From positions 1 to 45,116 of IMG/VR virus record IMGVR_UViG_3300037461_000344: 45,116 bases of DNA; one strand, written 5' to 3'. A program made the translations under genes and the position numbers. Below, one piece after another: positions 20,833 through 40,672 of the stretch. The number at the start of each line of letters is the position of its first letter. Position 1 is the stretch's first letter. The notes below the pieces were generated by a model that searched no databases, was not told the origin of the DNA, and saw nothing but the letters and a program-made list of their open reading frames with translations. The stretch is from a virus. Its lineage: Duplodnaviria; Caudoviricetes.

Positions 20833-21613
20833 TCCATTCAAGATTGAAGGACCGGCCTGCATCAGTTTCAGCGGAGGACGGACGAGCGGCTACATGCTCT
20901 GGCGCATATTGCAGGCCTACGGCGGAAAACTGCCTGACGATGTAGTGGTCTGCTTTGCGAACACCGGCAAGGAGATGACGCAGACGTTGGATTTTGTGAA
21001 GGAGTGCAGCGATCAGTGGAATGTGCAGATCGTGTGGCTAGAGTACGGACACGACTTCGACAAAAAAGTGACTTATAGGACGGCCAGTAGACATGGAGAG
21101 CCGTTTGCTAGCCTAATTAAGCGCAAGAACTACCTACCGAATCCAGTTACAAGATTTTGCACAAGCGACCTGAAAGTTAAGCTGATAGAAAATCATTGTA
21201 AGTCTATTGGATTGGAAGAATGGACGACGCTTGTAGGTATTCGCGCAGACGAACCTAGAAGAGTAGCAAAGATTCGCAGCCAGTCGACAAAGTTAGCTCC
21301 GCTTGCCGAAGCTGGAATAGTTGAGGAGGTTGTCGAGGATTTCTGGTCACGCAACGACTTCGATCTTGATCTTCCATACAGGACGCATTCCAACTGCGAC
21401 CTGTGCTTCTTGAAGGGGGCCGGACAGATAATGTCTCTTATCAGAGAGAATCATGAAAGAGCACTTTGGTGGATTGAGCAGGAAAAGAAGATAGGGGCGA
21501 CGTTTCGCTCGGACCGTCCTTCATACGCCGAGATGTACCGCATGGCTACACAGCACGGTGAACTGTTTTCGTTTGACGATGAACCGATACAAGATTGCGC
21601 ATGCACTGACTAG
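20813..21613 (+). CDS. PAPS-reductase-like PP-loop (adenine nucleotide alpha-hydrolase) protein
   Basis: SFSGGRTS, FANTGKE, RFCTSDLK, GIRADE, NCDLCFLK and C-terminal CAC. Confidence 0.85.
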   Translation: MSNTVHDPFKIEGPACISFSGGRTSGYMLWRILQAYGGKLPDDVVVCFANTGKEMTQTLDFVKECSDQWNVQIVWLEYGHDFDKKVTYRTASRHGEPFASLIKRKNYLPNPVTRFCTSDLKVKLIENHCKSIGLEEWTTLVGIRADEPRRVAKIRSQSTKLAPLAEAGIVEEVVEDFWSRNDFDLDLPYRTHSNCDLCFLKGAGQIMSLIRENHERALWWIEQEKKIGATFRSDRPSYAEMYRMATQHGELFSFDDEPIQDCACTD

Positions 21614-21647
21614 TTGCGTTGCAGCTTACGTGAAGCACTGCACATGA

Positions 21648-22958
21648 ATGAGCGCGTACTACAACGAGATCGAACCGTTCGCGGCGCAGTGGTTGCGCAA
21701 CCTGATCGCGAGAAACCTGATTGCGCCCGGAGACGTTGATGAGCGCAGCATCGTCGAAGTGCAACCCAACGACCTCAGAGGCTACGCCCAGTGCCACTTC
21801 TTCGCCGGCATTGGCGGATGGGGCTACGCCTTGCGGATTGCCGGATGGGCCGATGACCGACCTGTTTGGACAGGCTCTTGCCCATGTCAGCCGTTCAGCA
21901 CGGCCGGCAAGCAGCGTGGCAGCGACGATGAGCGCCACCTATGGCCTGCGTTCTTCCGCCTCATCCGCGAGTGTCGCCCTGCAACAGTCTTTGGCGAGCA
22001 GGTTGCAGGAGCGGCTGGATATGCGTGGTGGGACCATGTGGCAGCAGACCTGGAAGGCGAAGGTTACGCCGCTGCGGCGTGTGATATCGGCGCACACTCA
22101 GTCGGGGCTCCGCACATCAGACAGCGATTGTTCTGGGTGGCCGACGCCGACCGCACAGGATCACTTCTCGGCGAATGCGACAGCGAACCGCAGCAACCCG
22201 GACAGCAAGCACCACGCGGGCACGACGCTGACGGACGCGGCCCGGTTTGCGGGATGGGCGACGCCGACGACGCGAGACTGGAAAGACGGCGCAACGAGTC
22301 TGGAGAACGTGCCGGTCAATTCACTTCTTGGCAGGCAAGTCCTTGGAGCAGCCTCGAATGGCTCCAATGCTCCGACGGAAAAGCGCGGCCAACTCAACCC
22401 GGCCTTTTCCCGCTGGCTCATGGGTTACAATCCTCACTGGTGCGATGCGGAGATATTGAAGCCGCTGCCATTCAGGAGGTTCTAAATGCCAGCATTGATC
22501 CCGACCCCGGAAAAGCGCTGCGAGTTCTGTGGCAAGCCTTACGAACGACGGTACATCAATGGACGGTTGGAGGACCGTGGAGTATTCATTCGACGGAAAT
22601 TCTGCTCGCTTTCATGCTCAGTCTCCGCGCAGCATGCAATGCCACCGCCTACGGAAGCGGCGGCGCGCAAGCGAGCAAAGCGGTTCATTGGCGTGCGCTG
22701 CGATTCCTGCGGATGGTCAGACGGCTTGACCGTTCACCACATCGACGGCAACCCGTTGAACAACCGGCTCACGAACTTACAGACGTTGTGCGGGTACTGT
22801 CACTCAACATGGCACGCCACGCTGAAGCGTATTGGTTTGCTGCCGAGGATGCCTATGCCTCGACTAATCGAGTGGGACGACTGCGCGCCTACGGCAACGC
22901 AATCGTCCCGCAAGTCGCGGCCGAGTTCATCGGAGCAGTGATGGAGCGCAGGCCATGA
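21648..22958 (+). CDS. C5-cytosine DNA methyltransferase, alpha chain (M.EcoHK31I-like) with a ~146-aa insertion
   Basis: FFAGIGG (I), GSCPCQPFS (IV), GEQV (VI), HIRQRLF (VIII), GNAIVP (X); motif IX is missing from this frame. Confidence 0.9.
   Translation: MSAYYNEIEPFAAQWLRNLIARNLIAPGDVDERSIVEVQPNDLRGYAQCHFFAGIGGWGYALRIAGWADDRPVWTGSCPCQPFSTAGKQRGSDDERHLWPAFFRLIRECRPATVFGEQVAGAAGYAWWDHVAADLEGEGYAAAACDIGAHSVGAPHIRQRLFWVADADRTGSLLGECDSEPQQPGQQAPRGHDADGRGPVCGMGDADDARLERRRNESGERAGQFTSWQASPWSSLEWLQCSDGKARPTQPGLFPLAHGLQSSLVRCGDIEAAAIQEVLNASIDPDPGKALRVLWQALRTTVHQWTVGGPWSIHSTEILLAFMLSLRAACNATAYGSGGAQASKAVHWRALRFLRMVRRLDRSPHRRQPVEQPAHELTDVVRVLSLNMARHAEAYWFAAEDAYASTNRVGRLRAYGNAIVPQVAAEFIGAVMERRP
21853..22485 (+). 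CDS. Alternative-frame methyltransferase beta chain nested in the alpha gene
   Basis: +1 frame; WPTP and WATP repeats and GQLNPAFSRWLMGY (motif IX-like), as in M.EcoHK31I beta; start uncertain (21739 or 21853). Confidence 0.75.
   Translation: MTDLFGQALAHVSRSARPASSVAATMSATYGLRSSASSASVALQQSLASRLQERLDMRGGTMWQQTWKAKVTPLRRVISAHTQSGLRTSDSDCSGWPTPTAQDHFSANATANRSNPDSKHHAGTTLTDAARFAGWATPTTRDWKDGATSLENVPVNSLLGRQVLGAASNGSNAPTEKRGQLNPAFSRWLMGYNPHWCDAEILKPLPFRRF
22486..22941 (+). CDS. HNH endonuclease fully nested in the +1 frame of the methyltransferase gene
   Basis: CEFC, FCSLSC, CDSC, HHIDGNPLNN..NLQTLCGYCH; GGAGG SD; ATG immediately follows the beta-chain TAA. Confidence 0.85.
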   Translation: MPALIPTPEKRCEFCGKPYERRYINGRLEDRGVFIRRKFCSLSCSVSAQHAMPPPTEAAARKRAKRFIGVRCDSCGWSDGLTVHHIDGNPLNNRLTNLQTLCGYCHSTWHATLKRIGLLPRMPMPRLIEWDDCAPTATQSSRKSRPSSSEQ

Positions 22959-23161
22959 ACCAGAACCTCAAGGAACAAATGGACTGGTACGCCAGCCAGC
23001 CAGTCAGCTACCGCCGCATGTGGTGGAAGTGGGCAACCGAGCAACCGAACTATCACGAGATGCACCAGGTTGCGCTGGCGACCGAGAAAGACGAATCGGT
23101 GCTCAGGATCATGCGCGTGATTGATGAGCAGGTGCGCGACGGCAGGAAGGTGAAAGTGTGA
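22955..23161 (+). CDS. Hypothetical protein
   Basis: ATGA overlap. Confidence 0.65.
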   Translation: MNQNLKEQMDWYASQPVSYRRMWWKWATEQPNYHEMHQVALATEKDESVLRIMRVIDEQVRDGRKVKV

Positions 23162-23308
23162 AGCGCTGGTCGTCACTGATCGACTGGATCACGATGCCGA
23201 TCTGGCTGCCGGCCATGTTTGCGGTTGCACTGGTCGCATTCTGCGCCGGCTGGCTGCTGACGCAATTGCGGGATTCACAGGACTGAACGCTGCTGAGAGA
23301 CTCCAATA

Positions 23309-27326: not shown

Positions 27327-27542
27327 CTACTCCTTGTTCTCGACTTCTGGCTTTCCAAACGAGATCGGCTGACTAGTCACCAGACGCAGCAGGATATTGG
27401 TCATTGCGATGACGAAGGCCGCGGCCCCGTACAGCGTTTCGCTAAACAGAGGCTGAAGCAGCCTGAAGTGCATCTCCAAGCCGGCCAATATCGCACTGAG
27501 GAAGTTGAACCACAATGCCTTGGACGCCCACCAGACTTTCAT
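27327..27542 (-). CDS. Putative holin with two transmembrane segments
   Basis: WWASKALWFN...NILLRLVT; upstream of the endolysin. Confidence 0.65.
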   Translation of the reverse strand: MKVWWASKALWFNFLSAILAGLEMHFRLLQPLFSETLYGAAAFVIAMTNILLRLVTSQPISFGKPEVENKE

Positions 27543-28033
27543 CACATAGTCCTCCACAAAAAATTTGCAACTGCTTGTACCTCAGATGCTGTGGCGTTGT
27601 TTTTGATCCTGTTAGCCTTCATGCAGATGACATGAACATTGCTTGCTATGTAGCCAACAGAAGGAATTATTCGATCAATCGTTGGGGAGTTATCTGAACC
27701 ACCAGAAGCTGATGTTTCAAACTTCAATCCGAGAATGGGGCAGTGTGTCGGCATGTTTATATCTTGCCAGCGCAGATTAAATGGAACTCCTATTTTGACC
27801 GCTCTCTTTTTAGCTGACCAAACCATTTGTTTTCTTGGATCTTTTTTGTGCGCTTCACGCATCCGCAGAACTAATATATCTCGCTTACCTGAATGGTATT
27901 CGGCACGACGATCAGCAAGAATTTGATCTCTTTTCAAAGCGTATGCCACCTTCTTGGCGGCACTAATTTTCTCTCTATTTAAAGATCGATATCTAGCTTG
28001 GGACTCAAGTCTTTGTGGAGAACAGCGCATCAC
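27542..28033 (-). CDS. HNH-like (His-Me finger) endonuclease
   Basis: AKKRA, CPILG and SPTIDRIIPSVGY..NVHVIC..ANRIK; visibly AT-rich. Confidence 0.8.
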   Translation of the reverse strand: MMRCSPQRLESQARYRSLNREKISAAKKVAYALKRDQILADRRAEYHSGKRDILVLRMREAHKKDPRKQMVWSAKKRAVKIGVPFNLRWQDINMPTHCPILGLKFETSASGGSDNSPTIDRIIPSVGYIASNVHVICMKANRIKNNATASEVQAVANFLWRTM

Positions 28034-38536: not shown

Positions 38537-39478
38537 TCAGGCGCGGGAGGCGACACAATCATCGCAGGGGGTACCGCTGACATCCTTGTTCAGGTGGGCC
38601 TCACGCAACTGCTGGAACCTCACACTATTCCACCCAACTTCGAAGCTGACTTCGTTCAGGTCTGCCATTACCATATTGCTGTCCAGGCCGGCCCCAAAGC
38701 AGCACGCTACCAGTTTGCCATCCTTGGTAATGTGGGCCTCGGTGAAGGCGGACCAGCAGGGCAGAGGTTCGCGCATCTTGGCAAGGCGGCCGGGATTGCC
38801 TTGGATAGGCTTCATACCGCTCGCGTCTGATGCTCCCCTCATCGAGTAAAGTGGGAGGAAATAATGTTCGTCGACGAAAGGCTCAATCTCTGCAATCATC
38901 TGGCGCATCAGATCGCCCTGCTCGCCGTCGAAAGCGATGGACGAGGCATAGATGCCGCAGTCGAAGCGTTCCTCATCGCGGATCGTGCGGGCGGCTTTGA
39001 GGTTGCTGATGGCGCGGTCGAGGTTCAGCCCGCTGACATTGGCGACCGAGGCTAATTGCTGCCGGTCGTAGAAGTTGAGGCTGAATTTGAGACTATCCAG
39101 TCCGGCATCCATGCAGGCGCGGATCTTGTCAGGCTTGGCCGCTGACCCGTTAGTTGTGAGGAACACGTATGGAAAGCCGACGAGCTTGGCCTCGCGGATG
39201 GCGTCGGGCAGCCACTGGCACAGAAACGACTCCCCGATGAAGAACACCCCAAGTTCTTCCACTCCGAGATCGTGCATTTCCCTAATGATGCGGGAGTAGA
39301 ACTTGCGGTCCATCTCGCCGTTGTCGGGGCGGATCGACTTGACGCAGAAAGAGCACTTGTAGTTGCAGTTTGCTGTCAGTTCGATCTTGCAGGATTTCGG
39401 CGGCGGAATGACCGTGCCGAGATGGCTTGCCGGAATCCCGGTAACGGCATCAATTCGTTGCGTAATTGACTTTTGCAT
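38537..39478 (-). CDS. Radical SAM enzyme with SPASM/twitch domain
   Basis: CNYKCSFC, GES, LTTNG and C-terminal C..DG...CC...CDDC; likely ATG at 39478. Confidence 0.92.
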   Translation of the reverse strand: MQKSITQRIDAVTGIPASHLGTVIPPPKSCKIELTANCNYKCSFCVKSIRPDNGEMDRKFYSRIIREMHDLGVEELGVFFIGESFLCQWLPDAIREAKLVGFPYVFLTTNGSAAKPDKIRACMDAGLDSLKFSLNFYDRQQLASVANVSGLNLDRAISNLKAARTIRDEERFDCGIYASSIAFDGEQGDLMRQMIAEIEPFVDEHYFLPLYSMRGASDASGMKPIQGNPGRLAKMREPLPCWSAFTEAHITKDGKLVACCFGAGLDSNMVMADLNEVSFEVGWNSVRFQQLREAHLNKDVSGTPCDDCVASRA

Positions 39479-40136
39479 GTGTGGTGCGGTACTCGTCGGC
39501 GTGAGGGGCGTTGGCGTAGTGCGGGAATAGCGGGATTCCCTGAGTCCAGTGCAGAAGCTTGGCGGCACCGCTTGCGCCGTACTCGTCGGCTAGCCAGTTC
39601 CAGTCAAGCGGCAGTTCGCCGATGAACTGATCGGGGCACCAGGAGAATGTCAGTGTTTCCAGCGCATTGCCGTCCCGCACAATGCTCGGATTCATCTTGC
39701 GCCAGACATAGTGGGCGCAGTTGATCAGCATGACTGATGCCCAGTTCTTGCGCGGGTAGTCCTCGTTGTCGGCCTCCATAGCGGTGCCGATGTACTTGCG
39801 CGGAGAGTTGGTGCGGTAGTGATGCTTGACGACCTGAACGGCCTTGTAAGGGTCGCGCAATCGTTCGAGGTCGGCAAGGTCCGCTTTCAGCAGCATGTCA
39901 GCCCCATCGCAGAAGATCGCGGTGCCGCGGTAGTCCTGCAACAGCGGAATCAGAAACCGCGACAGGGTGAATGCATTGGTGCCCTCGCGAACGTCAGATC
40001 CGAATGCCCTGCGCAGCATTGGTTTGTGCAGTGCAGTGATGGATACCGGTACCGTTGTGCGGTCCAGCACCGACTGGACAAACACATGGGTGCCGACATT
40101 CTCGCGTTCGTCGTGCCCGACGTACAGGTTGATCAT
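39450..40136 (-). CDS. GT-A glycosyltransferase (GT8/CDI-like)
   Basis: YVGHDERE, FTLSRFLIP, FCDGADM, YPRKNWASVML, WNWL and LLHWT. Confidence 0.85.
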   Translation of the reverse strand: MINLYVGHDERENVGTHVFVQSVLDRTTVPVSITALHKPMLRRAFGSDVREGTNAFTLSRFLIPLLQDYRGTAIFCDGADMLLKADLADLERLRDPYKAVQVVKHHYRTNSPRKYIGTAMEADNEDYPRKNWASVMLINCAHYVWRKMNPSIVRDGNALETLTFSWCPDQFIGELPLDWNWLADEYGASGAAKLLHWTQGIPLFPHYANAPHADEYRTTHAKVNYATN

Positions 40137-40672
40137 GGATATACGCGCACCATCTGGACGAAGCCTCCGCCGGCCACCAAGTCCTTGTGCGGCAGGATTT
40201 CGTGCTTGAGATCGGCGATTATCAAGTTGCAACCGAACTTCGAGGTGTCAATCGATCCAGTGTAGTAGTCGTCGAAGAACACCCATGCGTCCGGAGCGAT
40301 GACGCGCTTGATGTTCTCCCAGTCGCTGCGGATTGTCTCTACTGAGTGCCCGCCGTCGATCCATACGAAATCGATTGGCCGATCCGGGGCGAAAGCCGGC
40401 AATGTCTCACGAGTGTTGCCTTTGTAGAGCAGCGCATTGAATCCACTTAGACGATCAAGCACCTGCTCCATGTAGTGGTGCGGCTTGACGTTCTTCTCGA
40501 TGGCGTCCGTCTCGCGCGTGGCGTCCTCGAACAGGTCGAAGCCGTGATACTGGCAGCCCTCCGGGGCGACAGCGAGCATCTGCATCGCCCGCCGGCCATC
40601 CCACGTTCCGATTTCAAGTATCGAATTGGGGGCCTTCTGGCGCACAGCATCGATAAGTTGGTCGTATCTCAT
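40133..40672 (-). CDS. Class I SAM-dependent methyltransferase (Methyltransf_24-like)
   Basis: LEIGTWDG, GFDLF, DFVWIDGGHS and FDDY. Confidence 0.9.
   Translation of the reverse strand: MRYDQLIDAVRQKAPNSILEIGTWDGRRAMQMLAVAPEGCQYHGFDLFEDATRETDAIEKNVKPHHYMEQVLDRLSGFNALLYKGNTRETLPAFAPDRPIDFVWIDGGHSVETIRSDWENIKRVIAPDAWVFFDDYYTGSIDTSKFGCNLIIADLKHEILPHKDLVAGGGFVQMVRVYP

Follow-up and report, generated by a model that had tools for sequence, protein, structure and literature searches.

How can a gene hold a complete endonuclease gene in its interior, in another reading frame, and still encode its own product? The question is raised by a methylase locus in the window, by which we mean the whole stretch of DNA analysed, the 45,116 nucleotides of IMG/VR virus record IMGVR_UViG_3300037461_000344. 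The window is a tailed-phage genome, with a portal, a large terminase, a major head protein and an endolysin that match PHROGs (47 ORFs scanned). The methylase locus lies among replication and recombination genes and is preceded by a PAPS-reductase-like gene. A preliminary description, made from the letters alone, held that an HNH endonuclease is inserted in a DNA methyltransferase encoded in two frames, that neither frame is closed by it, and that it is tolerated by overprinting rather than by intron or intein splicing. From comparisons of sequences, the element is probably a splicing-free homing endonuclease overprinted on a working two-chain methylase.

Layout of the locus

The alpha chain, a C5 cytosine methyltransferase of 436 aa, is encoded at 21648-22958 (+), as first described, and its frame is open across the insertion. 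On the same strand it includes what we take to be motif I (21798-21818), the catalytic PCQ (21882-21890), motif VI (21993-22004), motif VIII (22110-22127) and the motif X region (22869-22919); the motif numbers of both chains are our own presumed labels. Alpha matches PF00145 and phrog_363, its residues 70-164 align to M.HhaI, and its predicted model matches solved C5 methyltransferase structures. Motifs I, IV (PC), VI, VIII, IX and X and a HhaI-like fold are all present, with motif IX in the +1 frame.

From 21721 no stop occurs in the +1 frame until a TAA codon at 22483-22485. The beta chain, of 248 aa, is placed at 21739-22485 (+), with ATG 21739 as the probable start on the basis of GGAG at 21729-21732. 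It contains W[PA]TP repeats, which are likely to serve in target recognition, and motif IX (LNPAFSRWLMG...W, 22393-22440, +), the last residues of which are supplied by the insertion. The alpha segment FPLAHG (22407-22424) overlaps this motif. The beta ORF matches phrog_1008, and in most relatives the +1 frame is open from near the alpha start to motif IX, though 10 of the 62 listed loci contain no motif IX by the search pattern used. Beta also has conserved blocks of its own (46 sequences) and is presumably made as a protein here. The beta frame matches 203 phage records, and because most of the 25 rows listed are annotated only with the alpha methyltransferase, the second chain seems to have been widely missed. 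A possible one-frame counterpart of the alpha/beta pair is ShiLan gp70 (locus L168, 8344-9513), a single-chain relative whose PTP repeats, motif IX and motif X share a frame.

The HNH endonuclease, of 151 aa, is encoded at 22486-22941 (+), in the +1 frame relative to alpha. Its ATG directly adjoins the beta stop, and a Shine-Dalgarno-like AGGAGG (22474-22479, +) lies 6 nt 5' of it. The order given in the preliminary description, with beta ending at 22485 and followed by an HNH gene that has its own Shine-Dalgarno sequence, is thus correct. The term triple-nested, with neither frame closed, holds in part: alpha does read through, but beta is closed at 22485. Over the length of the gene the third frame is interrupted by 12 stops, and with beta ending ahead of the HNH the locus consists of three ORFs in two frames.

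The HNH ORF matches PF13392/PF01844 and phrog_1271 and has an intact HNH core with zinc-binding Cys pairs (12/15, 40/44, 72/75 and 102/105), as well as H84-H85, N93, N97, H106 and H110. Each of these 14 Cys/His/Asn positions is kept in 70-74 of the 74 nested members of the family defined below, and the HNH is a conserved protein. Its predicted model has a mean pLDDT of 87.5; a Foldseek search with this model gave no match at E <= 0.001, the top rows including the HNH nucleases T5 SciA, PacI and I-HmuI. By the pattern used, a strong Shine-Dalgarno sequence was found in only 39 of the 74 nested representatives. The Shine-Dalgarno sequence of the window's HNH is paired in a local fold prediction. 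Hairpin control of the HNH start was considered as a family trait and rejected, as start accessibility was lower than that of control starts in only 26 of 59 loci. A search of 21400-23200 for a sigma-70 promoter found none.

Elsewhere in the window, a second, free-standing endonuclease gene that matches endonuclease VII/HNH-like PHROGs is found near the endolysin (27542-28033, -), and a radical-SAM-like ORF and a methyltransferase-like ORF lie among the virion genes (38537-40672, -).

Comparison with empty alleles

Alleles that lack the insert were found in the same metagenomes as the filled allele. Contigs from 4 of 4 DNA runs join position 22428 to 22869/22870 with 5-6 other letters between, a net difference of 435 bp, these contigs being alleles of related phages, aligned at 80% likeness and with 22-61 letters on the shorter side, and one of the four runs may be the window's own source. 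In two runs 22424 is joined to 22872 with 12 letters between, and the net difference is again 435 bp, as it is in the protein alignment. The insertion is accordingly placed at 22429-22869 (+), where 441 nt replace 6 nt of the empty alleles, and the net 435 bp correspond to 145 alpha codons. Two earlier expectations, that the alpha junction FPLAHG..NRVGRLRAYGN is split by about 440 bp and that the insert length is divisible by 3, are both borne out by these contig junctions.

The insertion site is the end of motif IX of beta. In empty alleles, alpha reads FPLAHG-xxxRVGR-LRAYGN and the +1 frame reads LNP...RWLMG-xPxEWDxCAPT from the same bases, and both readings match their own consensus at 0.84 (30 distinct empty segments). 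At the left junction, beta has received a new tail, which retains the motif IX tryptophan; at the right junction, the ancestral beta tail is kept as the HNH C-terminus. Both features had been suspected from the letters of the window, and the empty alleles confirm them. The left target copy (22429-22485, +), which is diverged, consists of the replacement beta tail and the TAA at 22483-22485. The right target copy (22870-22941, +) includes the ancestral beta tail in the +1 frame and alpha motif X in frame 0.

In P0094, L002, L003 and L033, a few additional residues separate FPLxxG from RVGxL, ahead of motif X. These short segments at the insertion site resemble remnants of a deleted element, and may be such.

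Stop codons and selection in the overlapping frames

Searches with HNH peptides, and scoring of 387 loci, gave 84 full-length members of the family, reduced to 79 representatives after collapsing at 90%. The loci of these members were fetched by HNH peptides and not by the host frame. The number of stops expected in other frames was obtained by shuffling each gene's own synonymous codons, and the interval counted covers the nuclease core. Many phage C5 methyltransferases were found to have the layout of the window, which answers the survey that the preliminary description had proposed. The representatives include phages or genomes of proteobacteria, Staphylococcus, Bacteroidota and Verrucomicrobiota. 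Among cultured phages, the Komagataeibacter phages phiKX1/2 have the same layout as the window, and Staphylococcus phage CUB-EPI_14 has a single-chain host with the insert before motif IX. In the annotation of phiKX1, both the HNH and the full alpha are missing.

In 74 of the 79 representatives, the carrier (-1) frame contains 0 stops across the nuclease core vs 315.4 expected, whereas the control (+1) frame of the same 74 contains 312 vs 295.6 expected. With codon usage taken from the flanking ORFs (57 loci with enough flank), the carrier frame again has 0 stops vs 352 expected. The other five representatives, which were separated only after their context had been seen, have 56 stops vs 67.9 expected, and all 79 together have 56 vs 383. 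Two of the five are free-standing (L259 and L107), one has lost its host (L261), and two are fused in frame to a single-chain methylase (L263 and L103). The openness of the carrier frame is well beyond chance. It extends to AT-rich members (L085, L196, L260 and L100), which have zero stops where 6-15 are expected, and to a family in which HNH cores are under 90% alike, often about 40-50%. Past the nuclease, 71 of 74 have motif X in the carrier frame. For the window alone, the probability of no alpha-frame stop when the HNH is synonymously recoded is 0.002-0.05 depending on the null, and 0.052 by the strictest.

With alpha residues 255-436 as query, 145 proteins were found, and at least 49 carry the insert open in frame among the 120 listed and scored. 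A profile search with the HNH family, in which context was disregarded, gave 72 clusters (50% identity) at E <= 1e-30 and 884 at E <= 1e-10; several of the matches, of 407-491 aa, may be beta-HNH fusions.

Selection on the two frames could be compared using a second filled allele, seen in 3 of 3 runs. It has 37 differences, 35 of which were analysed, and 34 of these are inside the HNH ORF. For this one allele pair, the differences are 25 synonymous and 9 non-synonymous in the HNH frame (dN/dS 0.09) and 7 synonymous and 27 non-synonymous, with no stop, in the alpha frame (dN/dS 1.3). The frame-specific dN/dS suggested earlier therefore reveals purifying selection on the HNH frame and none on the alpha-frame residues. 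In view of the two values, alpha likely carries the insert as a passenger loop, on which the one clear constraint is staying open; the value of 1.3 speaks against protein-level selection on the alpha-frame insert, and that possibility was rejected. The predicted alpha model is in keeping with this, as the methyltransferase core and the C-terminal helix are modelled with confidence and the insert between them with less (block means mostly 86-98 for residues 1-170, 39-79 for the insert, and 95 and 86 at the C-terminus). The moderately confident helices of the alpha-frame insert, and its conservation in alignments, can be a shadow of the HNH.

Splicing signals

A rival reading is that the insert is removed by an unrecognised self-splicing intron, an intein or ribosomal bypass. 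A short duplication does flank the insert, a feature that is discussed as intron-like in PMC11855218. However, a search of 21400-23200 against Rfam gave no match at E <= 1, the ribozyme core of a group I or II intron was found neither outside nor around the ORF, and only 57 nt of the insert are outside the HNH ORF. Its folding energy (-155) is like that of shuffles (-152 +/- 5). An intein family was sought in 94 alpha proteins and found in 0; a Hint domain and a terminal His-Asn followed by Cys/Ser/Thr are lacking, and HN[CST] precedes motif X in 1 of 23 representatives. RNA splicing or bypass would also remove the need for an open carrier frame, and the frame is open, which counts against both. 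We therefore regard removal of the insert by any of these routes as very unlikely. The claim of the preliminary description that the endonuclease is tolerated by overprinting, and not as an intron or intein, is supported by the lack of a splicing signal, the patchy distribution and the open frame, though tolerance of this kind is not new in principle (PMC11855218).

Target duplication and re-wiring of motif X

In the window's subfamily, both anchors were found in 23 representatives, and the copies were compared with the anchor residues left out. The target is duplicated in all 23. In 19 of them the left copy resembles the beta consensus more than that of alpha (0.53 vs 0.27; 2 ties), and in 21 the right copy resembles the alpha consensus more than that of beta (0.57 vs 0.31; 2 ties). 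The window's own copies are strongly diverged, among the most so, and give a tie in the left/right comparison. The motif IX tryptophan is retained in 23/23, beta ends 18-21 residues past WLMG (21 unfused loci), and the beta stop directly adjoins the HNH ATG in 13 of 23. A net insert divisible by 3 in 23/23 was set aside as evidence, as it follows from the choice of anchors.

A sister subfamily was used to ask which feature is kept. For its empty alleles, 80 loci were fetched, 16 of which were incomplete and 5 without motif IV, leaving 59 that were classifiable. In 58 of the 59, motif IX is in the +1 frame and motif X in alpha, 53 nt apart. Among the filled loci, 24 were examined and 19 were measurable. 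Seven keep the phase of the empty alleles, with alpha reading through, and in the other 12 (L172, L173, L252, L335, L336, L349, L186, L191, L097, L181, L089 and L331) motifs IX and X are in one frame. Ten of these 12 were read, and in nine the alpha motifs occupy the other frame, where a stop comes just ahead of the HNH, and beta runs on to motif X; in L331, all motifs are in one frame. Whichever chain extends to motif X, the HNH lies in the +1 frame relative to it. As motif X belongs to alpha in 58 of 59 empty alleles, yet shares a frame with motif IX in 12 of 19 filled loci, the kept feature is a chain that reaches motif X. Judged from these loci, frame-shifting inserts in the sister subfamily appear to hand motif X to beta. 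An initial classing of hosts by regular expressions (10 of 79 unassigned) had produced a class of single-chain hosts with the insert between IX and X, the members of which proved to be mostly re-wired two-frame genes.

Several other arrangements were noted. In L250 and L251 (and L255), around 2400-2830, beta runs stop-free into the HNH, forming a beta-HNH fusion. In L263, L103 and L098, around 2490-2830, the HNH is in frame as a domain of a single-chain C5 methyltransferase, just before motif IX, and the -1 frame is full of stops. L337 (2495-2827) has a family member at another site of the two-frame gene, near the start of the conserved part of beta. In L261 (2483-2960) the HNH is followed by a motif X relic with no methylase upstream, and it seems that the host was lost or the element moved.

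These data also bear on whether the methylase is still needed. The element could weaken or kill a dispensable enzyme, the open frame being inherited or a result of codon bias; orphan phage methylases can be dispensable, as is noted for ShiLan in section 4.1 of PMC11855218, the alpha-frame insert residues are unconstrained, and L255, L261 and L265 are frameshifted or have lost the host. Such an origin of the open frame is hard to reconcile with zero stops in AT-rich members and across cores that are often only about 40-50% alike, or with motif X following in the carrier frame in nearly all nested members. There would be no reason to replace the end of motif IX, or to re-wire motif X, if the enzyme no longer mattered. 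We consider it most improbable that the methylase is expendable in this way, and retain the reading of an endonuclease overprinted on a working enzyme.

Distribution and presumed mobility

The rows of a tree built for the N-terminal domain of alpha (150 in all, with 59 filled and 91 empty) were labelled by allele state; 70 of its 147 inner branches are open. The labels are interleaved, with 37 changes, 7 of them forced by starred branches, in which gain and loss are indistinguishable, and phage recombination alone can scatter the insert. They are more clustered than in shuffles (37 changes vs 46.7). The window's nearest rows are empty. When loci were found through the host, 1 of 49 found with alpha was filled, as were 0 of the 59 classifiable loci of the sister subfamily. 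The HNH family is found in hosts of different architecture, with 14 changes among 69 labelled rows. This scattered distribution fits homing, and homing is what we infer from it.

The HNH might instead be a domesticated partner of the methylase, in a small restriction-modification or competitor-cutting module that serves the phage. The strong purifying selection on the HNH and the HNH start that adjoins the beta stop would suit such a role, as would the fusions to beta (L250 and L251) and the in-frame fusions to single-chain methylases (L263, L103 and L098). A useful partner would hardly be as rare and scattered as the host-based searches found (1/49 and 0/59). The HNH is placed at conserved motifs in the interior of the gene, with more than one insertion site and with hosts that differ in architecture. 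Moreover, the HNH is flanked by a target duplication, and short remnants are found in P0094, L002 and L033. Domestication is accordingly judged unlikely, and the homing endonuclease is preferred.

Proposed mechanism

The insertion, with its probable homing endonuclease, lies where motif IX of beta and the approach of alpha to motif X share bases that are conserved in both frames among empty alleles. The target is duplicated, and the left copy keeps the end of beta motif IX and a stop, the right copy alpha motif X. The carrier frame is kept stop-free by selection, and alpha would reach motif X with about 145 passenger residues. Since translation of alpha is predicted to continue across the insertion, the gene likely tolerates it with no splicing. 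The HNH would be made as its own protein from the Shine-Dalgarno sequence and the ATG that adjoins the beta stop, probably coupled to translation of beta, and alpha and beta would assemble into a functional methylase. In a co-infecting phage or a prophage, the nuclease may then make a cut or a nick at the empty junction, and repair would copy the element.

Looking beyond the window, we lean towards a widespread, undescribed family of splicing-free homing endonucleases specialised in C5 methyltransferase genes. Its members would invade the doubly coded IX/X stretch, leave one target copy per chain and lie +1 over the chain with motif X, and the length of the insert could move motif X from alpha to beta. 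If this is true, overprinting would join introns, inteins and gene splitting as a general way in which insertions are tolerated, and the element would drive the re-wiring of split methyltransferases. In genome annotation, beta and the HNH are mostly uncalled. The locus is also a natural system for the overprinting of new coding sequence under one-sided constraint.

Comparison with known systems

In split C5 methyltransferases of the M.AquI type, motifs I-VIII are on one chain and IX-X on the other. The re-wired relatives, in which alpha stops before the HNH and beta reaches motif X, arrive at the same split. In contrast, the window's alpha keeps motif X, and the likeness implies nothing on the origin of M.AquI.

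The host resembles M.EcoHK31I. According to PMC2836561, the whole of the beta chain of that enzyme is read from within the alpha gene in a different frame, motif IX being on beta and motifs I-VIII and X on alpha. Compared by layout, the window has the same arrangement of chains and the same split of motifs. M.EcoHK31I is a restriction-modification enzyme with no nested nuclease, and PMC2836561 places its target-recognition domain in alpha, whereas the variable repeats of the window, which would have this function, are in beta. The insertion is reminiscent of mobE in phage nrdA, where the host gene is cut into two genes that reassemble without splicing (PMC3045599). Both are HNH-type endonucleases, mobile in the case of mobE and probably so here, in a coding gene, with no sign of RNA or protein splicing, and both insertions supply new tails to host chains; in the window, the ORF of the carrier chain is undivided and the nuclease is encoded over it in another frame.

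A literature search, with most subscription journals outside its scope, brought up nothing on this C5 family or on phage methyltransferases read in two frames, and nothing on a split target duplication or the re-wiring of motif X. The principle itself is published (PMC11855218); the combination and the evidence of selection were not found in print.

The closest known system is the ShiLan domain (Arsenault, Gosselin and Gogarten 2025, PMC11855218). It is an HNH that lies out of frame in methylase genes of mycobacteriophages, where the host frame is open and a splicing signature is lacking. One more phage with this domain is given in PMC12613952. Homing of ShiLan was inferred, not tested, in PMC11855218. 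The window shares with the ShiLan domain and the Pacc40 gp60 insertion an out-of-frame HNH in a phage methylase, a stop-free host frame and no intron or intein signature. The distribution is patchy in both, and the start of the insert briefly resembles the downstream flank (PMC11855218). What defines an insertion of this kind is likewise seen here, namely filled and empty alleles, an open host frame, an HNH in another frame and a disjunct distribution, on a weakly resolved tree. However, gp65 is a DPPY-type (amino) methylase with the HNH in the +2 frame, whereas the window has a C5 methylase and an HNH in +1, and the 195-aa ShiLan HNH shares only a 28-residue core with that of the window. ShiLan is also without a Shine-Dalgarno sequence, while in the window this sequence and the ATG adjoin the upstream stop. 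Furthermore, the window's host was already two-frame, its two chains divide the duplicated target between them, and with 79 representatives the C5 family is far wider. Given the other methylase class, the other frame and a likeness confined to the 28-residue core, the element is ShiLan-like in its working and not of the ShiLan sequence family. PMC11855218 left open whether hidden nucleases are spliced, whether the host enzyme survives and how the nuclease is translated. The C5 family bears quantitatively on these questions, as stops are purged from the carrier frame, motifs needed by the enzyme are restored on the appropriate chain, and an ordinary start for the nuclease is present beside the upstream stop. 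Phages phiKX1/2 are cultured examples in which they can be tested at the bench.
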